A stretch of 64,000 bases of DNA. Origin: Chiloscyllium plagiosum. Its lineage: Eukaryota. Every line of letters starts with the position of its first letter. The first letter of the stretch is position 1. This document shows positions 1-56,010 of the stretch, in pieces. The notes beneath the pieces are model-generated. The model did no database searches, was not told the DNA's origin, and saw nothing but the letters and a program-made list of their open reading frames with translations. Position numbers and translations under genes: made by a program. The stretch is from assembly GCF_004010195.1 (NCBI RefSeq), contig NC_057718.1:77811571-77875570 (forward strand). Reading direction: 5' to 3'.

Positions 1-563
1 TTTCACCTCTTGGCCATCAATTTAAACCTAGGATGAGCTGCAAGGAGAAGGGTGGAGATCGGAAAATTTGAGAATAGGAAATCTAACCACAGCCACCTCC
101 AGTTTTAGCAGAGACAGATTGACTAAATACTGTCTGTGTCTGGGTGCCTCATTTCAATAGTACCATGAGATTGCTGACTAAGACATTGTCTGTCTTTTGG
201 GTTGAACATTGGCCAGGTGAGTTTCCTATACTCAGAAACCCAACAAATGAAGGGAGCTGAAAATGGCTGGTTTGAACTGCATTGTTTGCAGGACAGGAAT
301 ATCAGGATTGTTTCAAACCATTAAATCTGAAAATATTGAAGAAGGTTATGTTTAATCCCCCATGCTGGATGAGCAGAAGAGTGATTGTTGGGAGTTGGAG
401 AAGGGGGAGCAGTTAAAAGCTTTAAAATGAGATGTAATTCACTTCTATTTCTTTCCCACTGAAGATTCTTTAGCCTGGTGACAGATTTTGATCTAAATGT
501 CCAAAACAAAAAATCCTTAAAACAAATCTTCCAACAAACATGATAAGATTGCATTAAAGTCAG

Positions 564-784
564 GGAGGAGAAAGTGGGGACTGCAGATGCTGGAGATCAG
601 AGCTGAAAAATGTGTTGCTGGAAAAGCGCAGCAGGTCAGGCAGCATCCAAGGAGCAGGAGAATCGACGTTTCGGGCATAAGCCCTTCTTCAGGAATCATC
701 CTGAAGAAGGGCTTATGCCCAAAACGTCAATTCTTCGGCTCCTTGGATGCTGCCTGACCTGCTGCGCTTTTCCAGCAACACATT
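564..784 (-). mobile_element. Fold-back mini Penelope-like element, family A
   Basis: Inverted arms ~607-693 / ~699-786, unpaired tail 564-606; direct repeat TTAAAGTCAG at 554-563 and 785-794; arm sequence matches the 3' end of the PLE fragments at 21278-21680 and 44293-44825. Confidence 0.85.
661..696 (-). ncRNA. Minimal type I hammerhead ribozyme motif (family A)
   Basis: Minus strand reads ATTC-CTGAAGA-A-GGGC-TTAT-GCCC-GAAA-CGTC-GATT. Confidence 0.75.
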
Positions 785-794
785 TTAAAGTCAG

Positions 795-4794: not shown

Positions 4795-5302
4795 GGGGCG
4801 GTACGGTGGCACAGTGGTTAACACTGCCTCACAGTGCCAGAGACCTGGCTTCAATTCCCGCCTTCTGGAGTTGAGTGGTGCTGGAAAAGCACAGCAGTTC
4901 AGGCAGCATCCGAGGAGCAGGAAAATCGCATTTCGGGCAATTTTCCTGCTCCTCGGATGCTGCCTGAACTGCTGTGCTTTTCCAGCACCACTCTACACCA
5001 GAACCTGGTTTCCAGCATCTGCAGTTATTGTTTTTACCTAGTTCAATTCCCGCCTTGGGCAACTGTCTGTGTGGAGTTTGCACATTCTGCATGTCTGTGT
5101 GGGTTTCCTCTGGGTGCTCCACTTTCCTCCCAAAGTCCAAAGATGTGCAGGTTAGGTGAAATGGCCATGCTAAATTGTCCATAGTGTTAGGTGAAGGGGT
5201 AAATGTAGGGGAATGGACTTGGGTGGGTTGTTCTTCGGAGGATCAGTGTTGGCATATTGGGCCGTAGGGCTTGTTTCCACACTGTAAGTAATCTAATCTA
5301 AT
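4795..5302 (+). mobile_element. HE1/V-SINE-type tRNA-derived SINE, interrupted by a PLE mini-element
   Basis: A box GGTGGCACAGTGG, B-box-like TTCAATTCC, V-SINE core TGTGTGGAGTTTGCAC..GGGTTTCCTC, (TAATC)n tail; matches 16863-17155. Confidence 0.9.
4865..5041 (+). mobile_element. Fold-back mini PLE, family A (apex partly deleted)
   Basis: Inverted arms; perfect 15-bp TSD TTCAATTCCCGCCTT at 4850-4864 and 5042-5056. Confidence 0.88.
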
Positions 5303-8830: not shown

Positions 8831-9009
8831 TATTAAATAAGAAAAAGAAGATTTGGAGTAGGAGAGGAATCCCTCCATAGTCTGACCTGCACCTGCATTT
8901 TACCCAGGCAGGTCAGGAGGGCCTATTGGCTGGAACGTGTTATCCAGATTTTCACTCCCCCTTGTATGCATTCATAGTTTTAGATTGGTCAAAGGAAACT
9001 TCTGGTCTC

Positions 9010-9146
9010 CACACCTGCATGCCTTCAATTATGCCCAGCCTTCTAATTCTTCACAAACTTTCCTATTTCCAAGGTTTTGTGCATGCACATTTTCTGGAGG
9101 TAGACTTAAATCACCAGGTGCCTCCAGTGAAGTAGAATTTCAGCAT
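9010..9146 (+). repeat. 137-bp direct repeat, copy 1
   Basis: Matches 10061-10197 with 2 mismatches. Confidence 0.95.
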
Positions 9147-9318
9147 ATCTGGCACAAAATTCATCCAATTTGCCTTTGGCAATAAACCTCTTCAGTTTCA
9201 TCTTTCTGTTCTCTACTTATGAAATGCTTTCTCTATTCATCACAGTTTTTTTTTACTATCCTTATTGTCCATACTGTCCTTCACAATGACTGCTTGCAAA
9301 TTAGCTGCTGTTATTCAA

Positions 9319-9663
9319 AGTTAAAAATCACACAACACCAGGTTATAGTGCAACAGGTTTTTTTGGAAGTACTAGCTTTTGGAGCGCTGCTCCTTCATCA
9401 GGTAGCTGGGGAGCAGGATCATAAGACACAGAATTTATAGCAAAAGATCATAGAGTCCTGCAATTGAAATGATACATTGAACAAACCTAGATTGCTGTTA
9501 AGTCTTTCATCTTGTCGAATGGATTGCAGGCTTTGATTCATTAATAAGTAAATATTATGCTCCGAATGCTACACTTCCAAATAAACCTATTGGACTATAA
9601 CCTGATGTTGTGTGATTTTTAACTTTGTCCATCCCAGTCCAACACCAGCACCTCCACATCATG
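9319..9663 (+). mobile_element. Fold-back PLE, family B, with long left arm
   Basis: AAAGTTAAAAATCACACAACACCAGG... inverted at 9575-9626; left arm is the reverse complement of the pLTR at 54860-55090; degenerate TSD GCTGTTATTCAA (9307-9318) / GCTATTATACAA (9664-9675). Confidence 0.85.
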
Positions 9664-10060
9664 GCTATTATACAAGACCACATACTACATCTTAGATGAG
9701 TCTTTTGATGGACTTGCTGAAACTTGACATTGATGTCAAATTCGTCCTGTTTACTGAGGTTGCCTCACCAGTTATGCTGTGACAGTTAATGTTGGGGAAG
9801 TAATTTTGCAAAATCACAAGGCCATGTCCCAATTTGTCTCAACTGCACAGAAACCTCCTCCTCTACATCCTCTTCTAAACCTCTTGCAAAGTCCTAAACA
9901 CCTACCAATCACTCAAGCTCCCCAACAATTGCCAAGATCTCCTTTCTCCTCCTTCTTCCCTTCTAAACTGACTGACCTTGTTCTCGTTGATGTTAGCTTT
10001 CACCTAAATTGCTACAGCATCTTCTCACTTGTTCTGTTTCCCTATGCTCAAATTCCCCTG

Positions 10061-10197
10061 CACACCTGGATGCCTTCAATTATGTCCAGCCTTCTAATTC
10101 TTCACAAACTTTCCTATTTCCAAGGTTTTGTGCATGCACATTTTCTGGAGGTAGACTTAAATCACCAGGTGCCTCCAGTGAAGTAGAATTTCAGCAT
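10061..10197 (+). repeat. 137-bp direct repeat, copy 2
   Basis: Matches 9010-9146. Confidence 0.95.
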
Positions 10198-11244
10198 CCC
10201 TGTAGTGTGGAAAGGATAAAGTGCAAGTTAGATTTGCCAACAGTAGGTCTGAACTTTATGGATTGAGAGTAGCCATTTGGATATTGTCTTAGGGCATCTT
10301 TGGATGTCAGGTATGCTTTAGAGAATGCCAGGTGGCTTTTGGGGAATGGTAGCTTTTTGGGAGGAATCAAGTATTTTTTTGGAGGGATTCAGTAGCTATT
10401 GTAAGGAGTCAGATGTCCTTGAGAGGGAATCAGGTAGCATTTGGGGTGATCATGTGGGGTGGAATGGTGTGAAATGGTCAGATATGAGTCAGCTGCTCTT
10501 TTGTAGGATCTAAGAGCAAAGTCGCTTTTTGGAGATGGTTGGAAAAATCTGGTACTCATGAGATGTGGGGATAAGGTACCCTTCAAGGAAAGATAGTTTT
10601 CAAGACTGTTAACAGCACAGAAGATTTTGTCCAAAAGATACATAAACTCTTTGGGAATGTAAAGCTGTCAAGAAATGCCAAAGCTGTTAAATATCTTGAA
10701 GTGTCAAACTTCTCAATTACTGTCAAAAAGTGTCAAAACAGTCAATATCTAATCAATTGACGTTTATGAATGAATGATTTCTCAATATAATGTATTCATC
10801 AACATAGACCTTTAAGTAATAGAACATTACTTTTCCCTCTCTGTGCACTGCTATTTTAGGCACTGGTAAAGGGGTAATGAATGGTGGGTGGAAATAGGCA
10901 CTAAGTTGGCACAAGAGGTACACAGTGCCATTTGGCATGGGTATAGAGCCAGAGGGCTCATGAGGATGTATAGGGGGCTTAAGAGTATGAGAGATCATGG
11001 GAACAGATTGAATGACATAGGCTGCCATTGAAGTAATCAGAGATAATGGTAGAGAGCATTAGATGCATGGGCTGGTATGGAGGGAACACAGTGAGCATGT
11101 GAAGGTGAGGGGGATGAGAGAAGTAAGGACTAGAGGAATGTTTTATTTTTGTTTGAACTTCTGAGTGAAGTGCTGGAGCGTTGAGGCACATTTTCCATCT
11201 AATCTGCCTCAACATCTGACAGCCGGATATTGCCCAGAGAGTTC

Positions 11245-18750: not shown

Positions 18751-19873
18751 AACCCTTCTTCCTAACAGTTTACCTCACTCACTCATATTCTTCCCAAAGC
18801 CCTTCTCCCTACCCCACAATCAGTCACAAGTACGTCTCTCCTCCCCAACCCCTGTAAAACAAACTACACATGCCCACAAAATATAGTCCTTCTCCCGGGA
18901 GGAGGGAGCCTGTACAACAGCCAGACAAAAGCAGAAAAGCAGTAAATTTTGAAGCTGCCACTCACTTCTCTGGCTCAGCCACATGAGGACAGCTTTTTTC
19001 ACATTCTGAATGCAGTCAGTCTCTGTCTTCGCTATCTGCACCAAGACAGAATCTCTCTGTAATACGATGATTTTCTTAGAGCCTTGTTAAGAATTAATTC
19101 CAGCATATTTTCAATGCCTAGTATCAGTTGACTGGCCTGTGCTTCTCTTTTTTCTCTCCTTCTTTTTTCTTGAATAGGGGGTTTGCTAATTTACAATCCA
19201 CTGGGACGATCATAGAATCTTAAAATGTAGAAATATTTTAACCAGTGTTTCCACTATCTTGATAGCTACCACTTTTATGAACCAGATGATGTAGGCAATT
19301 GGCTTCTTGGGATTTTTTTGATTTTGGTCCTCCAAGTTTCTCTAATGCTTTTATCAGCTAACATCTTAGTTCCTTTCCTCTTATTAGGCACTGATAGTTT
19401 TGTTTCCTAATTTCCGATTTTTAACTTCTGTTGTAAAATATACACAAACGGATAACCTTTTATAAAGATTCCAGAATATCTAAAAGTAAAAAAAAAAAGT
19501 ATGTGGGACAGATATTTGCATTTTCTATTGGAAAAGGAGCCCAACAAGCTTTGAGGTAATTCAGGTTTGGTTCAGGTTGTGACAGCAGTCCCCACTCCAT
19601 GCCATCACTGATGACAGGGTCACACTTGGCAGCTTAAGGAGAATTTTGTTTTTCCTGATCTTTAATATTATAATTTTGAACAGACTTCGAAACATTCCTA
19701 AAACCTGCCTTGCTGTCAACATGAAGATTGCTGAGGACTTAGGAACATCTGGATCATTAATTGTTAAATGAGTCTGACACTTTCAATTGCATTATTAGAT
19801 ATTGAATTATAAGTTTAATATGCAGTGATTGATTATAGAGCTCTGACTTGAAATTGTCCTGACCATTACAGAG

Positions 19874-20038
19874 ATCGCACAACACCAAGTTATAGTCCAA
19901 CAGGCTTATTTGGAAGCACTAGCTTTCGAAATGCTGCTCCTTCATCAGGTGATTGTGTGAAACCTGTTGGACTATAACCTGGTGTTGTGTGATTTCTAAC
20001 TTTGACACCCCAGTCCAACATCGGCGTCTCCAAATCAT
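19874..20038 (+). mobile_element. Fold-back mini PLE, family B (apex deleted)
   Basis: CACAACACCAAGTTATAGTCCAACAGG inverted against CCTGTTGGACTATAACCTGGTGTTGTG, followed by the family-B tail. Confidence 0.85.
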
Positions 20039-21079: not shown

Positions 21080-21277
21080 GTGTGGTTGGAGTATCCCAAG
21101 GTGGAGGATGAGGACATTGATTCTAAGTTGTTGGAGGGTCCCAAAGTGGAAGATGAGGACATTGATTATGTGTTTTTGGAGGGTCCCAAAGCAGAAGATG
21201 AGGACATTGATTCTGTGTGGTTGGAGGGTCCCAAGCTGGACACTGATTCCGTGTGGTTGGAGTGGCCCAAGGCAGAA
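21080..21277 (-). repeat. Tandem array of a 45-bp PLE endonuclease-derived unit
   Basis: Units start at 21080, 21125, 21170, 21215 (36 bp) and 21251 (partial); minus-strand translation repeats LIFHLGTLQPHGINV-like 15-mers (ORF 21065..21289). Confidence 0.92.
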
Positions 21278-21680
21278 CCCTCCAACCACACAGTATCAAA
21301 GTCGATTTCACCAGTTTCCTCATCTCCCCTCCTCCCACCTTATCCCAGATCCAACCCTCCAACTCCGCACTGCCCTCTTGAACTGTCCTACCTGTCCATC
21401 TTCCTTCCTACCTATCTGCTTCACCCTCTACTCCAACCTATCACTGTCACCCCCCACCTTAATCCACCTAACGCATTCCTAGTTTCCCTTCCCCCCAGAC
21501 CATGCCCCCTCCCATTTATCCCTCAATCCCCTTGCCCCCACCCCTCACAACATTCCTGATGAAGAGCTTATGCTTGAAGTGTCGACGCTCTTGCTCCTCA
21601 GATGCTGCTTGACTGGCTGTGCTTTTCTAGCGCCATGCTTTTTGACTCTGATCTTCAGCATCTGCAGTCCTCACTTTCTC
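21278..21680 (+). mobile_element. PLE family A 3' end (GIY-YIG C-terminus, 3' UTR, decayed hammerhead, tail)
   Basis: Aligns with 44470-44825; degenerate TSD CTAATCTGTAAAGGA (21065-21079) / CTAACCTCTAAAGAA (21681-21695). Confidence 0.88.
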
Positions 21681-21695
21681 CTAACCTCTAAAGAA

Positions 21696-24625: not shown

Positions 24626-25301
24626 CATCCTACTGGGAGAAGATAAGCTTATACTAAGGACAGTAACTGATCTGTGCAGAAGTGCCAAAGTTGTCAATCA
24701 ACAACTACAGCACATTCATGGCAGAACACACCAGGTCTCACATTGTGCTAACAGATACTTCAGGTATGGTACACCAATCATGAAAAACAAGACATATCCA
24801 GTGTGGGTAAACTGGCATTTACACTGAAAAATGCTGAATCATTTTCCACACAATTGTATGGCTAAAAGAAGCAGGTATAGGTGGCCACTGAAGAGACAGT
24901 GGCTGAACATTCTGATGAATCACTGTACACCATACACCAGGTTAGCTCAGTCGAGTTTATAGATGATACAGGGTTTGTGACTGTTGGAATGAGAACTGCA
25001 GAAGAACAGCAGGATAATATAAAATGTCAGATAGACACTGGTGCATCGTGTAACATCATAACCTTCACAAACCTGTCCAATGTGGCTCAACATGATGATG
25101 CCAAAATAAAGCCCTCAGAAGTAAGTTTAAGATTATATGATAGCATCACATTCATACTGAGAGGACAAATTACTCTGTGAGCTCATTATAATAAAATATA
25201 TTATAGCACCAGATTCATGCTGAGAGGACAGCTTACTCCGTGAGTCAAAGTTAAAAATCACACAACACCAGGTTATAGTCCAACAGGTTTAATTGGAAGC
25301 A

Positions 25302-25337
25302 CACTAGCTTTCGGAGCGTTGCTCCTTCATCAGGTGG
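25302..25337 (-). ncRNA. Minimal hammerhead ribozyme motif (family B)
   Basis: CCAC-CTGATGA-A-GGAGC-AAC-GCTCC-GAAA-GCTA-GTG; helix I CAC/GTG. Confidence 0.78.
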
Positions 25338-25341
25338 TAGT

Positions 25342-25377
25342 CCACCTGATGAAGGAGCGACGCTCTGAAAGCTAGTG
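25342..25377 (+). ncRNA. Minimal hammerhead ribozyme motif (family B)
   Basis: CCAC-CTGATGA-A-GGAGC-GAC-GCTCT-GAAA-GCTA-GTG. Confidence 0.72.
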
Positions 25378-25470
25378 TGCTTCCAATTAAACCTGTTGGA
25401 CTATAATCTGGTGTTGTGTGATTTTTAACTTTGTACACCCCAGTCCAACACCGGCATCTCCAAATCCGTG

Positions 25471-25659
25471 AGTCAAGAGTGTGATGCTAGAAAAGCACAG
25501 TAGGTCAGGCAGTACCAGGATGAAGGCTTCCTGATGAAGGGCTTTTGCCCAAAACATCAACTCTCCTGCTCCTCGAATACTGCCTGACCTGCTGTGCTTT
25601 TCCAGCACCACACTTGCGACTCTAATCTCCAGCATCTGCAGTCCTCACTTTCGCCTAGA
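25471..25659 (+). mobile_element. Fold-back mini PLE, family A
   Basis: Inverted arms plus tail; TSD TTACTCCGTGAG (25233-25244) / TTACTCAGTGAG (25660-25671). Confidence 0.85.
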
Positions 25660-25758
25660 TTACTCAGTGAGCCCATTGCAATAGCATGAACAAGATTCTG
25701 AAGTTCCATCCCATAGCTGACAAGCAAATGCTAGTCTTCTCAACTGGAGCAAGTCTAA

Positions 25759-25980
25759 GTTGAAACTTTATTGCTGGAACAGCACAGCAGGTCAGGCAGC
25801 ATCCAGGGAACAGGAGATTCGACGTTTCGGGCACAGGCCCTTCTTCAGGAAACCTGAAGAAGGGCCTGTGCCCGAAACGTCGAATCTCCTGTTCCCTGGA
25901 TGCTGCCTGACCTGCTGTGCTGTTCCAGCAATAAAGTTTCAACTTTGATCTCCAGCATCTGCAGACCTCACTTTCTCCTC
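25759..25980 (+). mobile_element. Fold-back mini PLE, family A, very young
   Basis: Perfect 93-bp arms 25757-25849 / 25853-25945, AAA loop, 35-nt tail; perfect TSD GGAGCAAGTCTAA at 25746-25758 and 25981-25993. Confidence 0.95.
25816..25852 (-). ncRNA. Minimal hammerhead ribozyme motif (family A)
   Basis: TTC-CTGAAGA-A-GGGC-CTGT-GCCC-GAAA-CGTC-GAA; mirror copy on + at 25853-25886. Confidence 0.78.
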
Positions 25981-26487
25981 GGAGCAAGTCTAAAGCCTGT
26001 TCCGAAAGAGAAGTGCAAAGTGTCACACTATACCAAACCTCCGACAGTGAAAAACATCCCACATGAGTACAAAGATGGGTTCACAGGGTTAGGATATCTT
26101 CTCAGAGAATGTCATCTTAAAATAGATGAGAATGCAAGGCCAATTCACTATCTGTCAATTCAGATTCAAAAAGTTCCTGTTGCCCCAAAGGTAAGACTGA
26201 AAAATAAGATAAAAGAGCTGAAGAAGAGAGTAATCAAGAAAGTGACAACTCCTGTACAGAATGGATTAGCATCAAGGTAGCAGTGAAACGAGCTGGAAAG
26301 CTGAAGGAGTACATTGACTCAAAGAATCTAAGTAAGGCCCTGAATAAATCTTAGTATCCCATGCCATCAATTGAAGGGAGTTTCTCACAACTCACCAAAG
26401 CAAAATTCTTCACCGCCGTAGATGTGAAGAAGTGTTATTAACAAGTGAAACTAGAAGTAAGCAGCAGCTTTCTAATAAGCCAAGTAA

Positions 26488-26690
26488 ATTCAAAATACTG
26501 TGGATGTTGGAAATCTAAAGCAAACACAGAATACTGGAGAAATTTAGCAGATCTGGCAGAATCTGCAGACATAGAAACTGAGTTAACATTCAAATCTGGT
26601 ATGATTCTTCTTCAGATAATTCTGTTTCTCTCTTCACAAATGCAGCCAGACCTGTTGAGTTTCTCCAGCATTCTTTTTGTTTCAGTTTCC
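26488..26690. mobile_element. Old fold-back PLE, family C
   Basis: ACAGAATACTGGAGAAATTTAGCAGATCTGGC inverted against GCCAGACCTGTTGAGTTTCTCCAGCATTCT; decayed minus-strand core CTGAAGAA-GAATC..GATTT-GAATGTT. Confidence 0.7.
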
Positions 26691-28479: not shown

Positions 28480-28960
28480 TTTTCCATCAAACCACTGAAA
28501 GCTCAATGGAACAAGTTGATGAAATCTAAAAGATTTCGGATAAATACGTGGCATTGCATATTGGAAGGGAAACATCAGAAAATTTGTACTCAATGGATGG
28601 CATTAAATTGGCTAAGAATGAATATGAAAGATACCTAGGAATCCTAGCACACCCAATGCTCACCATCCCCAACAAATCCAGGCTGCATTCGACAATGCTA
28701 AGACAAGGTTCAACTTTATACACAGAATGGTACGGTATAGTAGAAGTAGTGATCAGGTTCTACAATGCTCTGGTCAAACCACACATCAAACTGGGTCAGT
28801 TCTGCTCACTGTCAAACAATGCAGGTATTCAAGTACTGGAGACAGTTAGAGAAAGCCCAGTAGGCCTCGTGCCAGAGGTTTATGAAGAAGGACTGAAGAA
28901 ACTCAAGCTTTACAGCCTGGATAGATGACAACTGAGAGGTAATCTAATAGTGACACTAAG
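28480..28960 (+). mobile_element. Degraded CR1 ORF2 C-terminal fragment
   Basis: ORF 28548..28928 ERYLGIL...FYNALVKPHI...YEEGLKKLKLYSL. Confidence 0.8.
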
Positions 28961-32330: not shown

Positions 32331-32367
32331 ATGCTACGATGATACTTTCCCAGATGTGATTATCTGT

Positions 32368-32510
32368 AATAAAAACATAAATTGCTGAAAAAGGGTCACT
32401 GGACCCAAAATGTTACGTCTGTTTTTTCAGATGCTGCTAGACCTGCTGAGTTTTTTCAGCAAATTCTGTTTTTGTTGTAGATTTCTAACATCCTTGGTGC
32501 TTTGTTATAT
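32368..32510 (+). mobile_element. Old PLE terminus (family C-like) with decayed hammerhead
   Basis: CTGAAAA-A-GGGTC-ACTG-GACCC-AAAATGTT, then CAGATGCTGCTAGACCTGCTGAG. Confidence 0.65.
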
Positions 32511-33246
32511 TTTGATTATTTGTATGGATACTAAACAATGACATACATAAAACGATAGTAAGTATCACTTTCTCTGAATGTAGCTAATTCTTCAGAGTTT
32601 TCTCCAATGTCTGTATTTGAGAGAATTTCTGAACTAAATGCAGTATCCACTGCATTGCAAAAGAATAAGAACTGAAAGTTAGTCATCTAGGACAGTAGCT
32701 TCAAAGCTCATCCTAGTGTTTAATAGAGCCAAAGGAAATTTCTGAGAACCATACATCTTTCATTCTTGAGTCACTCAGAGAACTTCTTAGTGGGAGCAGA
32801 TGACAAGCTGTTACACCCAGCTATCCAGCATGAAAGATTGACCCAACATGCAAAGTTGTTGCTGTTAAAAGTGCAGGAATTCATTCTAAATTCTGTTCTG
32901 GAATGCAAAAATTGTTTGGTCACTTGGACCTCAGGAATTATTTTTATAGATGGTTTTAATTTAGTTGACTTGGACGGTAAAATTAAAATGTGGCTTTTTT
33001 GTTATGTCGGGAATACAGGTATTCATGAGTTGACTGCAATTTGGGAAAGAATAGATCAGGGGTTTTTTTGTTTAGTTTCTCATTATGTATTTAAAGCACT
33101 TAGCTATAATTTACTGTCTTTTACCTCTGGCTGAAGATTGTCTTACTCCACCCCCTCTCCTTTCTGTGTACTCTTCCTTCAGTACACTTTTTGTAATCTT
33201 TCACAGATGTCTAACAAACATTGACCAGCATTCACAACAGATCTTA

Positions 33247-34179: not shown

Positions 34180-34950
34180 TAGAACATAGAACAGTACAGC
34201 AGAGTATAGGCACTTCAACCCATGATGTTGTGTCGAACATTTATCTTAACCTAAGGTTAACCTGACCTACATACCCCTCAATTTACTGCCATCCATGTGC
34301 ATGTCCAGTAGTTACTTAAATGTCCCTAATGTATCTGATTCTACTCCATCACTGACAATGCATTCCACACACCCACCACTCTCTGCATAAAGAACCTACC
34401 TCTGACATTTCCCCTAAACCTTCCTCCAATCACCTTAAAATTATGATCCCTCGTGATAACCATTTCTGCCCTGGGGAAAAGTCTCTGGCTATCTACTCTA
34501 CCTATGCCTCTCTTTACCTTGTACACTTTTATCAAGCCATCTCTCATCCTTCTCTCCAGTGTGAAAAGCACTAGCTCACTCAACCTCTCTTCATAAGACA
34601 GGCCCTCCAATCCAGGCAGCACCCTGGCAAATCTCCTCTGCACCCTCTCTAAAGCATCTACGTCCTTCCAGAACTGGACACAATATTCCAAGTATGGTCT
34701 AAGCAGGGTTTTATAGAACTGCAGCAAAACCTCACGGCTCTTAAATTCATCCCCTTGTTAATGAAAGCCAAAACACCATATGCCTTCTTAACAACCCTAT
34801 CAACATGGGTGGCAACTTTGAGGGATTGATTTACGTGGACCCCAAGATCCTGCTGTTCCTCCACACTGCCAAGAGTCCTGTCTTTAACCTTGTATTCGGC
34901 ATTCAAATTCGACCTTCCAAAATGAATCACTTCACATTTATCCAGGTTGA
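34180..34950 (-). mobile_element. CR1 3' fragment
   Basis: ORFs 34341..34727 and 34658..34990 (KCEVIHFG, RPYLEYCVQFW). Confidence 0.92.
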
Positions 34951-36039
34951 ACACTACTATTTCAGCAAAGTAAAATAAATTGTGGTCCACAAGTTTCTTG
35001 TGATACTATGACAATAGGTGAATACAACACAAGCAACACTGTCACGAATCAATTATGTATCTCTGGTCTACAATTTTACAGAAGTGTAACATTTAAAAAT
35101 CCTTATCTTCTGCCTTTTCAAGTAATAACTCATGCTGGTTCCACAAACACTGACATTATTAAATAAATAGTTTTATTGGAGGTATTGCCTGTGGTTTAAT
35201 GAAACTCACAGAAACATAACATTCAGCTAGCACCTGAGACTCTCATCACTATCATTAGATATGCCCCTTAACACTGCAGGACAAACCCACCAGAGCTGGA
35301 GGCAAAGTTGAGAGGTAGTAAACAGTAAGGAGGGATTGGCCTTGGAGCCCTCAACAGTGCCTCCAAATACCAATGTTATGGCTTCAGGACAAACACGGAC
35401 AAAGAAACCCATTGAATGCCATCTTTCATCACTTTATAATCAATATTTCTTCATGTTAAATATCATTTAGAAGGACCACTGAGGATAAGGGCACTGCATG
35501 AACTTGGATTGCATTCAATTTGTGTCACCAAGAATAACCTAGTAGCAACATTGCTGACTAACTCCTGAGCAACATAGCTGTTCGATTGGATCTGCAGCAG
35601 GAGGTGAAAGAACCAACACAATGGAAAACCCTATTTGAACCTTGCCTTCATCAATGTATCTCTAATAGCTCCATCTGTATATGGTGGTATTTATAGGAGT
35701 GACTACCTTGTGGAGACAAAGTCCACCTTCATGCCAAGGCCATGTCCAACAGTTTGTGAGGCATGATCACTACTTTAAGGGTGACAGATGCACAATAGAT
35801 TTGACAGCTCAAGACTGGGTATCCGTAATGTACTGTGTCCAACAGCAACAGCAAAATTGTACATTAGCATAATTTTTAAGCACATGTCATGTTATGTGAT
35901 CCACTCTATTACTACCACTAAGTCATGAGACTAACCTTAATTCAATAAGAAATGTTACAAAGCATGTCAGGAGCAGCTCTAAATGTATCTAAAAATGAGA
36001 TGCTTATCAAACTGTGGAAGCAGCATTCAATATTTTGAA

Positions 36040-38272
36040 ATTGTCCGATCTCTCAGTGGGAGAGCATTTCAGTGATAGTGATCAAACCCCCTGACCTTTA
36101 CTGTACTCATGGAGAGGGGTAGGAGCAGACAGCGTGGGAAAGTATTTATTTGGGGGAGGGGAAATGACAATGCTATTAGGTAGGAACTGGGGTGCCTAAA
36201 TTGGGAACAGATGCTCTCAGGGAAATGCACAACAAATGTGGAAGTTGTTTAGGAAGAACTTGCTGATTGTGCTGGACAGGTTTGTCCCACTGAAGCAAGA
36301 AAGGAATGGTAGGTTGAAAGAACCTTGCGTGACAAGGGATGTGGAACATCTCTCTAGTCAAGAGGAAGAAGGAAGCTTATTTATGGTTGAGGAGGCAAGG
36401 ATCAGACAGGGCTTTAGATGGTTACAAGATAGCCAAGAATGGACTTAGGAGAGCTAGAAGGGGGCATGAAAATGCTATAGCAGTAGAATTAAGGAAAACC
36501 CTAAGGCACTTATGTGAGGAACAAGAGGATGGCCAGAGAGAGGGTAGAGCCAATTAGGGATAGTGGAGGGAACTTTTATCTGGAGTCAGAGGAAGTAAGG
36601 GAGGTCCTGAATTAATACTTTGCTCTAGTATTCACTACTGAGAGGGACCTTGATGTTTCTGAGGGTAGTGTGAAACAGACTGAGATGCTAGAAAAGTTGG
36701 TTTTAGGAAGCAGGATGTGCTAAAACTTTAGAAAAAAAATTAAGGGTAGATAGATATGACTCTATATATCCCCTGGGCCAGAAGGATATACTCTAGATTA
36801 TTACAGGAAGTGAGGGAAGAGATACCTGCATCTTTGGTGATGATATTTGCTTCCTCACTGTCCACTGGAGTAGTGCCAGATGATTGGAGGGTGGCAAATG
36901 TTATTGCCTTGTTCAAGAAAGGGAATATGAATAATCCTGGGAATTACAGACCAGTCAGTCTTACGTCAGGAGAGGGCAAAGTATTGGAGAGTATTCTGAG
37001 AGACAGGATTTATGATTAGAGATAGTCAGCATGGCTTTGTGAGGGGCAGGTCATTTCTTACAAACCTTATTTAATTTGTTGGGGATGTGACAAAACACAC
37101 TGATGAAGGTAGAGCAGTGGATGTGGTGTACATGGATTTTAGCAAGGCATTAGATAAAGTTCCCCATGGTAGGCTCATTAAGAATGTAAGGAGGCATGGG
37201 ATACAGGGAAACCTGTCTGGCTGGATACTGAATTGGCTAGCCCAGAGAAGACAGAGGGTGATGGTTGAAGGCAAGTATTTAGCCTGGAGCTCCATGACCA
37301 GTGGTGTTCTGCAGAGATCGGTTCTGGGACTTCTGCTCTTGTGATTTTATAAATGACTTGGATGAGGAAGTTGAAGGGTGGGTTAGTAAGTTTGCCGATG
37401 ACACGAAGGTTGGTGGAGTTGTGGATACTGTAGAGGGCTGTTGTGGGTTGCAACAAGACATTGACAGGATGCAGAACTGGGCTGATAAGTGGCAGATGGA
37501 GTTCAACCTGGAAAAGTGTGAAGTGATTCACTTTGGAAAGTCAAATTTGAATGTGGAATACAGGGTTAAAAGAAGGATTCTTGGCAGCGTGGAGGAACAG
37601 AGGGGTCTTGGGGTCCATGTCCATAGATTCCCTCAAAGTTGTCACCTAGGTTGATAGGGTTGTTAGGAAGGCGTTTGGTATATTGGCTTTCATTAGCAGG
37701 GAGATTGAGTTTAAGACCCACACGGATATGCTGCAACTCTATCGAGCCTGGTTAGACCACACTGGGAATACTGTGTTCAGTTCTGGTCGCCTCATTATAA
37801 GAAAGATGTGGAAGCTTTAGAGAGGGTGCAGAGGAGATTTACCAGGCTCCTGCCTAGACTGGAGGGCATGACATTTATTAGAGAGCTAGAACTTTTATCA
37901 TTGGAGCAAAGAAGCATGAGAGGTGGCTTGATAGAGGTTTATAAGATGTTGAGAGGCAAAGAAAGAGTGGATAGCTAGATACTTTTTTCCCAGGACAGAA
38001 ATTTCTATCATGAGGAATCATAATTTTAAGGTGATTGGAGGAAGGTTTAGGGGAGATGTCAGAGGTAGGTTCTTTACACAGAGAGTGGTGAGTGCGTGGA
38101 ATGCATTGCCAGCAGTGGTTGTAAAGTCAGATACATTAGGGACTTTTAAGTGACTCTTGGCTAGGCACATGGAAGTTAGTACAATGAAGGGTATGTAGGT
38201 TGGTCTGATCTTAGAGTAGGATAAAAGGCCTGCACAACATTGAGGGCCAAAGGGCTTCTACTGTGCTGTGCT
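36040..38272 (+). mobile_element. CR1 LINE, 5'-truncated ORF2 and 3' UTR
   Basis: PGNYRPVSLTS, YMDFSKALDKVPHGRL, SKFADDTKVGG (ORFs 36756-37654). Confidence 0.95.
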
Positions 38273-41120: not shown

Positions 41121-41934
41121 GACATGTATGCTCGAGTGCAAAAGACAAAGCAGAGTTATTTGCAATAATCTGCAGCCAGAAGTGCTCTGAGGGTAATTTA
41201 CCTCAATCTTATCCTGAGGTTCCCAACATCAGAAGTGTTAGGTAAAAGCTAAGTCCTGTGAACAAAAGCAGGACAAATCAAATTCAGTTAATTATCACCC
41301 ACCAATCATCACTGAGGTGACTGAAGGGATTGTTAACAATTCTATCAACTGGCATTTACTCACAAATAACCTTCACATTAATGCTCAGTTTGGGTTTTGC
41401 CAGAATCATTCAGCTCCAGACCTTAGTACAACATTGATGCAAACATGGACAAAAGAGCTGAATTCTAGAGATAAGATGAGAATGGAACAAAGACCTAGTA
41501 GAACTGACCACAATGGGAATCGTGGGGAAACCTTTCACTAGCAGAAGTTATACGTAACATAAAAGATGATGGTTATGTTTGTTGAAAGCTACATTCCCTC
41601 ATTTTTTCCGCATGGGCATCTGAGGTCTATGCATTGCAGCAACTTCTGCAAACATAAGTCACTGTATTGGCATGCTAATCAGCATGCAAGGATACTTGCA
41701 GCTTAGCGAGAACATAGGTTGGAAGCCAATCATCTCAACCCTCAGATATCACTAAATGAGTTCCTCAGGACAGGATCCTATCGTCCTCAACAGCTTTGCC
41801 AATGACATTTCCTCCATCATAAGATCATAAGTGAAGATGTTCATTTATGACTGCATAGTATTCAGGTCCATTTGCAACTCCTCAGATAATGTAGCCTACC
41901 ATACCTGCATGTAGCAAGACTTGGACAACATTCA

Positions 41935-42031
41935 GAGCTGAAAATGTGTTGCTGGAAAAGCGCAGCAGGTCAGGCAGCATCCAGGGAACAGGAGAATTGA
42001 CGTTTCGGGCATAAACCCTTCTTCAGGAATG
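41935..42031 (-). mobile_element. Single-arm PLE family A insertion with hammerhead core
   Basis: Perfect 14-bp TSD TTGGACAACATTCA at 41921-41934 and 42032-42045. Confidence 0.82.
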
Positions 42032-42051
42032 TTGGACAACATTCACCCTTG

Positions 42052-42259
42052 GCAAAAGTGAGGACCGCAGATGCTGGAGATTACAGTCAAGAGTGTGGTG
42101 CTGGAAAAGCACAGCAGGTCAGGCAGCATCCGAGGAGCAGGAAAATCAATGTTTTGGGCAAAAGCGCTATTCCTGATTAAAGGCTTTTGCCCGAAACTTT
42201 GCTTTTCCTGCTCCTCAGATGCTGCCTGACCTGCTATGCTTTTCCAGCACCACACTCTT
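42052..42259 (-). mobile_element. Fold-back mini PLE, family A
   Basis: Tail on left; TSD GACAACATTCACCCTTG (42035-42051) / GACAACATTCATGCTTG (42260-42276). Confidence 0.88.
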
Positions 42260-43189
42260 GACAACATTCATGCTTGAACCAATAAACACAAAGTAATATT
42301 TTTAGTACAGAACTGCCAGGCGATGCTAACTCCAAGAAGACAGTGTCTAGCCAGTTCTCTAGATATTAAATGGGATCATCATTGTCAAATCCCACAATTA
42401 TCATTGTAAACTTAACTGGACTCTAGTCATTCAAATACTGGACCAAGGCTATGGTGAATAACTCGCATTCCAACTCCCAGAGTCTATGTATCATCTTTAA
42501 GACACATGTCAGGAGGTGGAATCAAATTGCCTGCATGAAAACAGAAATTGAACACAATTCAAGAAAAAAATAGGCTTGACTGAAACCAATTCCTGCACCT
42601 TAAACATTTATTCCCTCCTCCACCGATGCATTTTATCTGCAGTGAGTACCAGCTTCAAGATGCATTCTAGAAATTAGCAAAGACTGATCTGACAAAGAAC
42701 ACTGAGTGATGCATGGAAACACCACTCTCTCCAAGTTCCACTAAAGGCCACACACAATTCTGACTTGGAAGTATATCACTGTTCCTTAACTATTGCTGTG
42801 CTACTATCCTAGAACCCCCAATTGAACTGCACTGAGGGAAATTTTAACAACATGGCCGACAGCAATTGGTTCACCTCTGGCTTTGAAATCAATTGAGAAT
42901 AATCAATAAATGTTGACTTTGCCAGAGTGAAATCTCAAAAATTAATTAAATAACTGTTGGATTTAGGGTAAGCTTGCCAATTGGATGCAGATAGTTCTTC
43001 TATAATGCAACCACTGAGTTCTTGTGCAGCCCTGCATTATAGAAAAATAGCAGTTTAGAAACAGCGAGTAAAATGTCGATGTAATCATATTACAGCCAAC
43101 ACATATTGTTAGAAACAGTGTCCCAAAGTCATTAATCGTGTTACAGCAAATTTGCATAAACAAAACGCACATAACAGAATGGCCTGTAC

Positions 43190-44292
43190 ATAATTAGCTT
43201 AACAGAGAGTGGTGGTGGAGGGTTGCTATTTGGACTGGGTGCCTGTTACTAGCAATGTTTCACAGGGATTGGTTCTGAGTCCTCTTTTGTTTGTCATTTA
43301 TATAAATTATTTGGATGAGAACACAGAAGGTATGATTAGGAAGCTTGTGGATGACATCAACATTGGTGGCATAGTAGATAGTGAAGAATGTTTTCTAAGG
43401 TTACAAAGGGAGTACATCGGCTGAAAAATGGCAGATGCAGTTCAATCTGGATAAATACAAGGTATTGCAATTTGGTACAACAAGAAGGGTGGAGATTATA
43501 CAAGTAATGGTAGGGCCTTGGGTAATGTTAAGATTAGAGTGGTGCTGGAAAAGCACATCAGGTGAGGCAGCAGCCGAGGAGCAGGAAAATCAATGTTTTG
43601 GGCAAAGTGCCTTCATCAGCTTTTGCCCGAAACGTCGATTTTCCTGCTCGTCGAATGCTGCCTGAGCTGCTGTGCTTTTCCAGCATCACTCTAATCTTGA
43701 CTCTAATCCCCAGCATGTGCAGTACCCACCTCCGCCTTGGGTAGTGTTGTAGAAGAGAGGGACTTAGGGGTGCAGATACATAAATCTTTGAAGTTTGCAT
43801 CACATATGGACAAGAAGGTTAAAAAGACATTTGGTGTGCTTGTCTTCATTGCTGAGTCCTTTGAGTCTAGGAGATGGGAAGTCATGTTGAAGTTCAACAG
43901 AACATTGGTGAGGCCTCTTCTGGAATACTGTGTCCAGTTCTGGTTGCCAAATTATAGGAAGGATATTATTAAGGTTGAGAGGGTTCAGGAGAGATTCACT
44001 AGGATGTTGCCGGGTATGGAAGGTTTGAGTTATAAAGAAAGGCTGGATAGTTTGGGGCTTTCTTCAGTGAAGCATAGGACATTGAGAGGTGACCTTTTCA
44101 AAGTTTGTAAAATAACGAGGGGTATAGATAGAGTTAATGGTGGTTGTCTTTTCCCTGGGATGGGGGTTACAAGACTAGAGGGCACATTTTTAAGATGAGA
44201 GGGAAATGTTTCTAAAATACATTTTGAGTTGGTGTGTGGAATGAACTTCCTGAGGAAGTGGTGGATGTGAGCACAATTGCAATGTTTAAAAT
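43190..44292 (+). mobile_element. CR1 RT/3' fragment
   Basis: ORFs 43209..43424 and 43737..44198 (LVRPLLEYCVQFW). Confidence 0.92.
43530..43733 (+). mobile_element. Fold-back mini PLE, family A
   Basis: TSD GCCTTGGGTAATGTT (43515-43529) / GCCTTGGGTAGTGTT (43734-43748). Confidence 0.88.
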
Positions 44293-44825
44293 ACATTTCA
44301 GGGAACATCTCTAGGACACAAGAACTAAACAACCCCACTGCTCTGTGGCTGACCACTTCAGCTCTCCCTCCCATTCTACCAAGGACATGTAAGTTCTAGG
44401 CTTCCTCCACCACCAAATCCAAGCCAACTGACGAATGGAAGAAGAATGTCTCATCTTCCACCTTGGGATGCTTCAACCATATGGTATCAACATTGTCTTC
44501 ACTAGTTTCCAAATCTCCCTTCCCCCTACCTCATCCCAGATTCTCCAATGCAGCACCATTCTCTTCGCTTGTCCTACCTGTCCATTTTCCTTCTTACCTA
44601 TCTGCTCCACCTTCCCCACCGACCTATCACAATCACCCCTGACCTGTACCGACCTATTGTTTTCCCCCAGCCCCACCCCACACTTCTATTTATCTCTCAG
44701 CCCCCTTCCCCTCCCCACCTCCCACATTCCTGATGAAGGGTTTATGCCCGAAATGTCGATTCTCCCGCTCCTCAGATGCTGCCTGACCGGCTGTGCTTTT
44801 CTAGCGCCACATTTTTTGACTCTGG
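44293..44825 (+). mobile_element. PLE family A 3' end (GIY-YIG C-terminal half, 3' UTR, hammerhead at ~44726-44761)
   Basis: FREHL*DTRTKQPHCSVADHFSSPSHS...EEECLIFHLGMLQPYGIN; ATTC-CTGATGA-A-GGGT-TTAT-GCCC-GAAATGTC. Confidence 0.9.
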
Positions 44826-44999
44826 TTTACTAACTCTGGCAATGCATTTAATTTGTGCACTTAAAATATTTATCTCAAATTTTCTTAAATCCGATATTTT
44901 GGTTTGGTATGGTCCTTCATTTTAAGCCCTTCAATCATTGAAAACAGGCTATAATAAATCTACTCTTCCATCTTTTTATTAATTTTAAACCTCCAGTTC

Positions 45000-47679: not shown

Positions 47680-48930
47680 TAAAGAGTTAATTAATGCATT
47701 TGTGTTAACTTTGCAAAATTCTCTACATTTAGGAAAGTTCCATCATGCCGGTCATGAAAGAGAGTAAAGCTGGACATATATTAAACCTCAAGGGAATTGT
47801 GAGGAGTTAGTATTATTTTGTGAAAGAGATATCATGTTTAACTAACTTATTTAAGTTTTTTGAAGGAGTAATGTGTGTTGTGGATAAAAGGAAGCCTGTA
47901 CACACAGTACTTGGATTTCCAGAAGGCATTATAAGAAGGTGTCACCTTAAAGATTATGTTAGAAAATAAATGGTCATGGTGCAAGGACAAAATATTACCA
48001 TGGATAGGTAACTGGTTGGCTGGCAGAAAACAGACAGTATGCATAAATGAGCGTTTCTCTGATTGACCAGACCTGACAAGTGGGGTGTCGAAGGTGTCTG
48101 TGCTGTGTTCTCAACTTTTTACAATTTACATCAACAACTTAGGCAACAGGAGCAAAGTCATGGTAGCTAAATTCACAGATGACACAAAGATAGGTAGGAA
48201 AGTATTTTGTGAAGAAAACATAGATAATTTGGGATGGATATAGAAAGGTTTAGTGAGTGGGCAAAAATCTGGCAGTGGGAGAAAAATGAGGGAAAATGTG
48301 AAGTTGTATGTTTTGGTGGGAAGAATAAAAAAGCAAAGCACACTTAAATAAGGAGCGCAGAATTCTGAGGTACAAACAGTCCTAGCTGTTCTAGTGCATT
48401 TATCACAAAATGGTAGTATGCAGGTACAACACATAGCTGGAAATGTGTTGCTGGAAAAGCGCAGCAGGTCAGGCAGCATCCAGGGAACAGGAGANNNNNN
48501 NNNNNNNNNNNNNNNNNNNNNNNNNNNNNNNNNNNNNNNNNNNNNNNNNNNNNNNNNNNNNNNNNNNNNNNNNNNNNNNNNNNNNNNNNNNNNNNNNNNN
48601 NNNNNNNNNNNNNNNNNNNNNNNNNNNNNNNNNNNNNNNNNNNNNNNNNNNNNNNTGCTGCCTGACCTGCTGCGCTTTTCCAGCAACACATTTCCAGCTC
48701 TGATCTCCAGCATCTGCAGACCTCACTTTCTCCTCAAAGGTACAACACATAACCAAGAAGGCTAATTGGATGCTATACTTTTATTATGAAAGGAACTGAA
48801 CATGAAAGCAAGAATGCTATGCTTTAGTTTTGCAGGGTTAGTGAGAATACGTTTTAAATACTGTCAGTTTTGGTTTCCTTGTCTACAAAAGGATGGATAC
48901 ACGTGGATATGGTTCAGAAGAGGTCTACTG
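47680..48930 (+). mobile_element. CR1 RT fragment
   Basis: YLDFQKA and KFTDDTKIG motifs readable on +. Confidence 0.85.
48436..48737 (+). mobile_element. Fold-back PLE family A with assembly gap (N 48495-48655) at the apex
   Basis: Inverted arms flank the Ns; perfect TSD AGGTACAACACATA at 48422-48435 and 48738-48751. Confidence 0.9.
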
Positions 48931-51210: not shown

Positions 51211-51471
51211 CAACATACACATTGGTGCCAGAATTGGGGTAAGTGGGATCTGTATTGATGGGTTGGTCTCCACCTGAAGTGTGCTGGAGCCAGTGGTCTT
51301 GCAAGTCCCATAACTAGGGACACGGAGAGCATTTTAAACTGAGGGAGACAAGGGGTGATAAATCAATAGAGTCAAGAGGTATATCCAAAATATCCAAAAA
51401 AGAGATACATTAACATGAGAAACCACAAAACTGACCCTGATAAAAAGGGATAGAGAGTATGGATCCAAGAG

Positions 51472-51698
51472 GCAAAAGTGAGAACTGCAGATGCTGGAAA
51501 CCAGAGTTTAGGTCAGAGTGGTGCTGGAAAAGCACAGCAGGTCAGGCAGCATCCAAGGAGCAGGAAAATCGACGTTTCGGGCAAAAGCCCTTCATCAGGA
51601 AACTGATGAAGGGCGTTTGCCTGAAACGTTGAGTTTCCTGCTCCTCGGATGCTGCCTGACCTGCTGTGCTTTTCCAGCACCACTCTGATCTACACCCC
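51472..51698 (-). mobile_element. Fold-back mini PLE, family A; hammerhead cores on both strands
   Basis: Perfect 16-bp TSD AGTATGGATCCAAGAG at 51456-51471 and 51699-51714; minus-strand TTC-CTGATGA-A-GGGC-TTTT-GCCC-GAAACGTC at 51567-51602. Confidence 0.92.
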
Positions 51699-51779
51699 AG
51701 TATGGATCCAAGAGTCAACTAATAAATAACACTAGAATTTATAAAGAGAGTGAAGGATGAAGACGAAAGGCTCTGTACA

Positions 51780-54017: not shown

Positions 54018-54760
54018 CTGTCGTCAAGATATCTGGTGTATAGAGTTGGTTGGAGGTCCTGTGCAGCAAGGAAGTCTTGTTAGAACTTGTGCATGAAAAT
54101 GTTGGCATATTGGAATGCAAATTTGGTCCCCATGGATGTTCCGTGTATCTGGATGAAGAACTCGTTCTAGATTAGAGTGGTACTGGAAAAGCACAGCAGG
54201 TCAGGCAGCATCCAAGGAGCAGGAAAATCCCTCGGATGCTGCCTGACCTGCTGTGCTTTTTCAGCACCACTCTAATCTAGACTCTGGTTTCCAGTATCTG
54301 CAGTCCTTGTTTTTACCACCTTGAAGAACTCGTTGTCAAAGGTGAAAATGTTGTGGTCGAGCATGAAGCGGATGAGTTGTAGGATGGTGCTCGGAGATTG
54401 GCAGTTGTTGGTTGTGAATACTGAGGCTGTTGCAGCGATGCCGTCATCGTGGGAGCTGCTGGTGTAGAGTGCTGAAATGTCCATTGTGACGAGGAATGTT
54501 CCCACTTCGACTAGACTGTGGGTGCTGCGTTTTTGTAAGAAATTTGTTGTGTTGCAACAGAAGCTGGGGGTCCCCTGTAAAATGGGTTTCAAGATGCCTT
54601 GGACATAACCAGAGAGGATCACACACAGGGCCCCATTGCCTGATATGATGGGACGTCCAGGTGTGTTGACTTTGTGTATCTTCGGAAAGCAGTAGAAGTC
54701 ACCTATGCAAGAAGTACATGGGATGAGAGCATGTAAGGAACTCTTTGGGACTGGATCAAA
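54018..54760 (-). mobile_element. Penelope-like reverse transcriptase fragment
   Basis: ORF 54272..54799 FYCFPKIHK..PGRPIIS...LVTMDISALYTS; continues past the insertion as IQIHGTSMGTKFA..YANIFM...RYLDD. Confidence 0.92.
54167..54321 (+). mobile_element. Fold-back mini PLE, family A (apex deleted), inside the PLE RT
   Basis: Perfect TSD TGAAGAACTCGTT at 54154-54166 and 54322-54334. Confidence 0.9.
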
Positions 54761-55124
54761 CCTCATACCTTTAATGCATTGTCTGAGCTGAGATGTCACT
54801 TTTTTAAATAAAATCTTAAATTATCGCAGAATGTGACTTAAAAGAAGTTCTGGGTTTTACATATTAATGAACCAAAACCTGCAACCCATTTGAAAAGATG
54901 AAAGACTTAACAACAATCTAGGTTTATTCAATATATCATTTCAGTTGCATGACACTATAATCTTTTATTTAAATTCTGTGTCTTATGGTCCTGCTCCTTA
55001 ACTACCTGATGAAGGAGCGGCACAACGAAAGCTAGTGCTTCCAAATAAACCTGTTGGACTATAACCTGATGTTGTGTGATTTTTAACTTTGTCCACCCCA
55101 GTCCAACATCGGCTCCTCCACATC
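54761..55124 (+). mobile_element. PLE family B pseudo-LTR/3' end with decayed hammerhead (~55003-55037)
   Basis: TAC-CTGATGA-A-GGAGC...GAAAGCTAGTG followed by the same terminus as 25342-25464. Confidence 0.88.
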
Positions 55125-55127
55125 ATG

Positions 55128-56010
55128 GCGGCCATTATGGACACAGGGTTACATGGAGATCAAAGCTGGGAAATATTTGCGACTTTTCAAAAGGAAGAAA
55201 AGGGTAGTGGTGATGGAATAGGTATGATAGTTCGAACTCTTGGATCAGAAGATGCAGAATCCAAAACAATGGAAGTAAAAAATAAGAGGAAGAGATACTA
55301 GTGGAAGTAGTTTGTAGGTTCATTTACACTAGTTATACCATGGAATAGAGAACAAATCAGAAGATAATGAGGGCAAGTAAAAAGGCAGTACATTAATCAT
55401 GGGTGATTTTAATCTTAATGTAGACTTGGAAATTAAATTGGCAGAGGTAACTATGAGGAAGTATTCATAAAACGTATTTAGGTTGTTGCAGAGAACAATG
55501 TGTTTTGAATCTAGCAGGGATCAGGCTATTTTGTATCTGGTAAGTGTAATGAGGTAAGTTTTTCATAGATTATATGAGAGCAAAAGATCTCCCTAGGAAC
55601 CAGCAACCGAAATACAAAATAATAGTAAACAGGCGAAAGGGTGTTGGAGTTGGGGGGAGCAGGGGGAGAGAGAAATGGAGGGGAAGCAATATGTACAATA
55701 ATTATCACTAAAGAAAAAAGTAACAGGCGGAACTAATGAGGCTAAGGGCTGTTAACTCACCTGAAGCTGATGGGCTGCGCCCTAAAATATTAAATGACGT
55801 AGCTATAGAGATAGCAGATGAACTGGTAATAATATTCCAAGAATCCTTAGATTTGGCAAAATATGGTAGAATTTAGATTTCTGTTTTAGAAGGAGGAACT
55901 TGGGGTCAAGTGCAGCTATGCTAAAATTAAGTAATGGTAACTATAAAGAAATGAAGGCAGTGTTGGCTGGAGTGGACTGGTAAAGCAGTTTAATAGAAAA
56001 GATGACAGAT
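55128..56010 (+). mobile_element. Degraded CR1 endonuclease-region fragments
   Basis: AIMDTGLHGDQSWE and IMGDFN motifs. Confidence 0.75.

Follow-up and report, generated by a model that had tools for sequence, protein, structure and literature searches.

Does a short non-coding fold-back with a hammerhead motif in its arms propagate as an element of its own, or is it what a larger retroelement leaves behind on integration? The question is raised by positions 25746 to 25993 of a 64,000-nucleotide stretch of the Chiloscyllium plagiosum genome (contig NC_057718.1; hereafter the window), where a preliminary description had placed the type copy of a family of hairpins of about 200 bp. The analysis presented here favours the second answer. 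We put at roughly 0.7 the probability that such a hairpin is a short insertion of two head-to-head termini of a Penelope-like element (PLE), likely formed anew each time as a dead-end product, from two reverse transcriptase (RT) primings that run off the 5' end of the RNA.

Results

The type copy and related copies in the window

The layout described for the type copy was exact, and all of its parts were confirmed. Two perfectly complementary arms of 93 nt are separated by the loop AAA and followed by a 35-nt tail, and an exact 13-bp TSD encloses the whole, its left copy overlapping the outer 2 nt of the left arm (Table 1). Folded as RNA, the copy formed a single duplex (z = -25.9), and 0/200 shuffled sequences were equally stable. 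The inverted arm likely spans the interval from 2 nt inside the transcription start to the second of two priming sites, as set out below. A contig from another sample covers 25959-26664; it begins within the tail, crosses the TSD and continues into the flank. An 800-nt contig from a further organism (organism B) fits from exactly position 25981, with 113 further letters ahead of the fit; it is a candidate empty site.

The same layout had been reported at 12 further places, and all 12 proved to be inverted repeats. The 13 listed copies do not, however, form one family but three: A (nine copies), B (three) and C (one, at 26488). TSDs were exact in 9/13, the type copy included (10, 15, 12, 13, 11, 10, 14, 16 and 13 bp); at 9319, 19874, 25471 and 26488 none was exact. 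A hammerhead in each arm was claimed too widely: it was intact in both arms at 25249, 25746 and 51472 (3/13) and not in the other listed copies. The arms did match the 3' ends of PLE fragments in the window (44294-44830, 21431-21680 and 54893-55129).

Table 1. Coordinates of the type copy and of related features in the window. Priming sites are those of the proposed mechanism.
Feature	Position	Strand	Basis
Left TSD of type copy (13 bp)	25746..25758	.	exact repeat at 25981-25993
Inverted arm, tail-less: family A PLE terminus	25757..25849	-	perfect complement of direct arm
Minimal hammerhead core in inverted arm, 3-bp helix I	25848-25821	-	motif descriptor
Apex junction AAA, 1 of 25 spacer types among 50 loci	25850..25852	.	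sequence inspection
Direct arm	25853..25945	+	perfect complement of inverted arm
Hammerhead core in direct arm, predicted cut after 25881, helix I only 1 bp	25854-25881	+	motif descriptor
35-nt tail between putative priming sites 2 and 1	25946..25980	+	bimodal 3' ends
Right TSD of type copy	25981..25993	.	organism B contig begins to fit exactly here
Family A fold-back, tail on left, 10-bp TSD	554..794	-	inverted repeat and TSD
Family A fold-back, both arms begin within hammerhead, 15-bp TSD	4850..5056	+	
Family B two-armed insertion, one arm long (312-bp span), no exact TSD found	9316..9665	+	
Family B asymmetric fold-back, no exact TSD found	19870..20036	+	
Family A PLE body 3' end with tail	21431..21682	+	
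Family B fold-back, 12-bp TSD, in left junction of 25471 copy	25237..25476	+	
Family A asymmetric fold-back, short inverted arm, imperfect TSD	25470..25657	+	
Old family C fold-back, arm match 74%	26502..26690	.	
Old family C fold-back, missing from the preliminary list	32362..32515	+	
One-armed tail-less family A copy, own TSD, same 5' position as hairpin arms	41933..42031	-	
Family A fold-back, 11-bp TSD, inserted in TSD of 41933 copy	42035..42270	-	
Family A asymmetric fold-back, 10-bp TSD	43515..43743	+	
Family A PLE body 3' end: broken GIY-YIG C-terminus, 3' UTR, hammerhead, arm	44294..44830	+	
Family A fold-back, 161-N gap at apex, 14-bp TSD	48422..48751	+	
Family A fold-back, 16-bp TSD	51456..51714	-	
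Short family A fold-back, 13-bp TSD, beside family B RT fragment	54154..54334	+	
Family B PLE RT fragment	54344..54817	-	
Family B terminus with upstream body and tail	54893..55129	+	

PLE products were often located inside or beside other PLE termini or TSDs (25237-25476, 41921-42270, 54154-54334 and L022:200-430). The cases comprise a family B copy in the junction of a family A copy, an 11-bp target present three times and a family A hairpin within a family B terminus, a nesting which suggests target reuse or a preference for PLE sequence. At 54344-55129 the minus-strand family B RT fragment is followed directly by the plus-strand family B terminus; the two may together form the right-hand half of a long two-armed insertion.

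Several repeats lie close to these copies. Three to four 45-nt tandem copies occupy 21080-21240, in a 192-codon open frame adjoining a PLE 3' end; two 48-nt direct repeats, 63 nt apart, stand just left of the nested hairpin cluster (25134-25244); and a 145-nt direct repeat (9007-9151 and 10058-10202; 97% identical, 1051 nt apart) flanks the 9319 insertion. Decayed frames at 26050-26480 contain motifs reminiscent of the protease/RT region of an LTR retrotransposon. The fragments at 28530-28928, 34341-35005, 37298-37654, 43707-44198 and 62095-62448 resemble 3' ends of LINEs of the CR1/L2 type, at the start of one of which sits the 43530 hairpin.

The arms belong to Penelope-like elements

The C-terminus of a GIY-YIG domain precedes the arms of family A, within the window as well as at most of 30 fetched loci; in one locus (L121) RT and endonuclease motifs share a frame. 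Family B arms follow the RT at 54344-54817, and endonuclease motifs were read in family B translations. The parents of the arms thus show the order of EN+ PLEs, an RT followed by a C-terminal GIY-YIG endonuclease. Pfam RVT_1 was matched in L052 (E 2.5e-7) and Pfam GIY-YIG in L127 (E 4.7e-4, below the Pfam cut-off); no PLE family was matched by seven ORF fragments from the window. We saw no intact full-length PLE ORF, the long open frames chosen being N runs. Translations of both families contain a CX2-5CxxC linker between RT and endonuclease together with two cysteines in the GIY-YIG core. These features are given as marks of Neptune/Nematis PLEs in PMC8557442.

A pseudo-LTR was found in two family B copies (L032 and L036) and in one family A copy (L210). 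Both family B copies have the order TATA box, hammerhead, arm, tail, ATG and ORF, with the tail ending at the ATG; arm and tail are therefore likely to be the 5' UTR. Among 20 family A candidates the tail ran on into a body in one (L210) and did not in the other 19.

The arms end at a probable transcription start

Base-level ends were read with exact patterns in place of profile-HMM boundaries, the 5' ends of the latter being too fuzzy for such work. The first 100 listed copies of each family on contig C1 that keep the start motif were scored by eye, with a pattern that drops rows starting in G. In family A, 58 ended no more than 2 nt above the motif, 6 in the next ~8 nt, and 36 continued into the body; the corresponding family B figures were 32, 7 and 61. 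The stop precedes the hammerhead by 3 nt in family A and by 7 nt in family B. Since this distance differs, the stop is not set by the ribozyme.

A transcription start is characterised by the initiator consensus BBCA+1BW and by a usual spacing from the TATA box. Among body-linked copies, 10/12 of family B have a TATA-like box 30-31 nt above the stop, and 10/18 of family A have one at 30-32 nt (the family A match is loose and by motif list absent in 7/18). The stop itself fits the initiator consensus in 7/12 and 10/18 respectively.

At the position immediately before the stop the templated base is C, and C was as frequent there as G; among non-C cases G accounted for 23/35 in family A and 14/17 in family B (p < 1e-5 against 0.25), and for 16/28 (p = 3e-4) once rows explained by the other arm or by a duplicate had been removed. 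A matching C follows the arm in 9/13 asymmetric loci. Eleven G-class copies were fetched: the G stood strictly between TSD and element in one, within the TSD in four (microhomology) and at the end of a templated insert in three, with no TSD found in the remaining three. No apex among 50 carried an extra base on both arms. An extra G is described for L1 and SVA as marking the copying of a capped RNA end (PMC4859970). Judged from the DNA, the arm stop is probably the point of run-off at the 5' end of an RNA, itself probably capped.

The hairpins mostly lack a TATA box, and they are likely dead ends unable to propagate. According to PMC2377424 the promoter of Penelope in D. virilis is internal and TATA-less, in which case hairpins might keep promoter activity. 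One locus, L004:130-421, is a candidate promoter-bearing hairpin, its arms reaching 35-43 nt above the hammerhead and keeping the TATA-like region.

Copy number and range of sizes

Density was sampled outside the window in 51 stretches of 10 kb, of which 49 were placed at round coordinates and two adjoined the window. The sampled 510 kb contained 23 short fold-backs, from which we estimate ~1.6 x 10^5 in the 3.56-Gb genome (Poisson range 1.0-2.4 x 10^5). Exact patterns returned 4792 apexes for one family A subfamily group and about 810 for family B (controls 0 and 0), and a 13-nt family A motif had 100,849 genome copies (control 11).

Two-armed insertions with TSDs range from 150 bp to 1.8 kb, examples measuring 628, 713, 1503 and 1841 bp. 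One-armed copies with TSDs end at either of the two putative priming sites and begin at the position at which hairpin arms start. The hairpins are the short end of one insertion process.

Some loci lie between or beside these classes. L116:2386-2540, L005:2514-2660 and L060:1072-1215 have an inverted arm of 5-25 nt at the 5' joint, intermediate between hairpin and one-armed copy. L111:169-716 holds two direct one-armed copies with 64 identical nt downstream, resembling a retrozyme-like tandem or a local duplication. The inverted repeats at L003:9471-9813, L013:359-604, L071:2072-2583 and L072:4005-4864 are unrelated to families A-C.

Apexes, tails and the origin of the second arm

A check proposed with the preliminary description was whether apex junctions are shared or unique. 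They vary: the first 50 listed loci of one family A subfamily group, inspected by eye, had 25 different apex spacers, and four different apexes were found when the type copy was compared with three further members of its subfamily. Near-identical arms with differing apexes were found, and no master hairpin. The mean difference between the two arms of a copy is 1.1 nt, and that between copies 5.6 nt (14 copies); both arms belonged to the same subfamily in 24/24 assignable cases among 40 asymmetric hairpins. Arms so alike, of one subfamily and joined at varied apexes, point to one donor for both arms and to a joint made at insertion.

The 3' ends are bimodal, at about +88-95 and +123-125, and 31/34 short fold-backs have exactly one tail. 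TSDs measured 7-17 bp with a mode of 15 in 26 calls among 40 loci, the range reaching 18 bp over all copies examined; these statistics leave out 20 older family B loci, in which the automatic script made three TSD calls. Microhomologies of 2-3 nt occur at 45/100 asymmetric apex joints.

The same dead-end products could arise if one strand snapped back and primed its own second arm, as PMC3846280 proposes for rotifer PLEs. The close agreement of the two arms, including private variants common to both (L113), would be expected of this route, and short inserts copied from the nearby stem do occur at apexes. We nevertheless consider self-priming unlikely. It fixes which arm is longer, yet of the 40 asymmetric hairpins 29 carry the tail on the shorter arm and 11 on the longer, a comparison weakened in that asymmetric apexes could be later palindrome deletions. 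Loops of 0-1 nt, present in 12/50 apexes, would be hard to prime intramolecularly. Furthermore, long insertions have the tail either on a short inverted arm (L075, L098 and L126) or on the direct copy (L099 and L120), and one-armed copies use either end.

Hammerheads and the case for a self-propagating hairpin

Of the two readings offered in the preliminary description, abundant minimal PLE integration products and a non-autonomous ribozyme-hairpin element, the first is supported, whereas the varied apexes, the gradation of sizes and the one-armed copies tell against the second. The latter would be a self-propagating, retrozyme-like retroelement copied whole through hammerhead-processed RNA. 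Its copy number would be in keeping with this, as would the intact minimal hammerheads (36 motifs in 574 kb by descriptor, against 0 in each of five shuffles) and the derivation of retrozymes from PLE termini reported in bioRxiv 10.64898/2026.07.22.740005. Helix II of the hammerheads changes on both sides between families. With Rfam, no hammerhead model matched the window at E<=1; the only models to fit the hairpin shape were those of miRNA precursors, below the gathering score.

A master hairpin should have a constant apex, and the 25 types at 50 loci, with four in four copies of the type subfamily, argue against one. Each strand moreover carries one sense hammerhead, preceded by its own complement; a transcript across the hairpin is predicted to fold into a 93-bp duplex hiding the motif, and the hammerheads are likely passengers, masked in this duplex. 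The ends are found elsewhere than at the cleavage site. Junctions beginning exactly there numbered 15/100 by eye (plus eight ambiguous), against seven over the five preceding positions; 7/15 have 2-nt microhomology, and the larger peaks at +21 and +23 are also attributable to microhomology. Such junctions totalled 508 over a 12-nt range, against the 4792 with both arms at the start. Cleavage by the hammerhead would be at most a minor route to arm ends. Finally, retrozymes are recognised by head-to-tail tandem units each bearing a hammerhead, and no tandem hairpin array was present in the 574 kb. Propagation of the hairpin in its own right is thus highly improbable.

It is very unlikely that the short hairpins are assembly collapses of longer PLE insertions. 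The assembly does contain N gaps, one of them within the 48436 copy, and the type copy has no spanning long read; however, thousands of apexes are gap-free with varied, position-specific junctions, longer two-armed insertions were assembled as such, and the tail-TSD-flank junction recurs in the contig of the other sample (25959-26664). A MITE, whose arms would be the terminal inverted repeats of a DNA transposon, can be dismissed despite the abundant, non-coding palindrome of about 200 bp: as anticipated in the preliminary description, TSDs without a fixed length speak against DDE transposition and, with the one-sided tail, refute this reading, and the arms are termini of RT-bearing elements that also occur singly.

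Discussion

A proposed double priming on the RNA terminus

We propose that a TATA/initiator promoter in the pseudo-LTR would give rise to a capped RNA with a 5' UTR of ~130 nt, comprising hammerhead, arm and tail. The RT-GIY-YIG protein would nick both target strands, ~15 bp apart. One nick would prime at site 1, the end of the tail; the second would use site 2, which lies 35 nt to the 5' side. Primings on the 5' copy of the terminus would produce cDNAs of only 90-130 nt, each ending at the RNA 5' end, often with one extra C. The 3' ends of the cDNAs could then be joined via microhomology or short templated inserts, fill-in producing the TSD. Priming on the 3' copy of the terminus would yield a long arm, and a single successful priming a one-armed copy. 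The template may be one RNA or two sibling RNAs, and donors may be full elements or promoter-bearing stubs.

One priming per nick would explain the one-sided tail, the head-to-head polarity and the TSD, and primings on the 5' terminus would explain body-less arms that end at the start site. For an anole PLE in vitro, nicking of both strands, two internal RT starts bounding the tail and a dispensable hammerhead are reported in PMC11167929. The hairpin joints likely record the PLE start site and the mode of insertion.

We stop a little short of endorsing a wider proposal, namely that PLE integration is intrinsically two-ended, with one RT-endonuclease complex priming both nicks at the tail-bounding sites of a capped RNA. 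The ~10^5 body-less hairpins would then be a fossil record mapping start site and cap to the base, and truncated copies that keep the TATA box could serve as non-coding donors in trans, a pol II, SINE-like class with hairpin products.

The layout of inverted copy, tail and TSD is already known for PLEs; what is added here is the promoter-like arm stop, the excess of G and the end of the family B tail at the ATG. PMC8557442 regards the origin of PLE inverted repeats and of the tail as an open question, and the available text of PMC11167929 leaves the steps that follow priming untested. The hairpins offer thousands of natural junctions that discriminate between two primings and self-priming; they also point to a likely start site and indicate the minimal RNA with which the reaction could be tested in vitro. 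By estimate fold-backs make up ~1% of the genome (1.6 x 10^5 x ~230 bp) and could be misfiled as MITEs or miRNA precursors; any transcript reading through one would give long double-stranded RNA. Among the open-access articles searched, we found no published account of body-less PLE hairpins ending at a start site, or of twin priming by PLEs.

Comparison with known systems

Non-LTR retrozymes (bioRxiv 10.64898/2026.07.22.740005) are, like the hairpins, non-coding, hammerhead-bearing and derived from PLE termini. They are described as head-to-tail tandems, whereas the present copies are head-to-head with unique apexes. The hammerheads themselves resemble the minimal metazoan PLE motifs of PMC4209133 in a palindromic 2-bp helix III, a bulged base before helix II and a short helix I. 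The same source reports hammerheads paired on opposite strands in Schistosoma at distances of 100-700 bp; here the distance is 5-30 nt, the pairs are accounted for as products of insertion, and helix I is often clipped at the apex.

In L1 twin priming (PMC4859970), two primings from two target nicks lead to a 5' inversion, much as proposed here, and an extra G reflects a capped end. L1 primings, however, copy non-overlapping parts of the RNA, while the two cDNAs proposed here would cover the same sequence.

Poseidon of Anolis (PAc; PMC11167929) shares with the mechanism proposed for families A and B the two internal RT starts that bound the tail, the nicking of both strands, the dispensable hammerhead and the use of the element's own terminus as a target. 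Two-armed products are not described in the available text of that study, the PAc start sites are situated ~111-118 nt into the ORF, unlike the family B tail, which ends at the ATG, and Poseidon is without the CX2-5CxxC linker found here.

The hairpins also resemble the complex insertions of EN+ PLEs, in which an inverted 5'-truncated copy, a one-sided 30-40-bp tail and a TSD are reported (PMC8557442, PMC3846280 and PMC2377424; likewise PMC8969392). The fold-backs show this same layout, being head-to-head with one tail of 31-43 nt, a TSD and a terminal hammerhead and forming a continuum of sizes. Compared with the rotifer elements the TSD is longer, with a mode of 15 against 8-10. The further difference is that here a very common product has no coding body and both of its arms stop at one position, defined by what appears to be a promoter.
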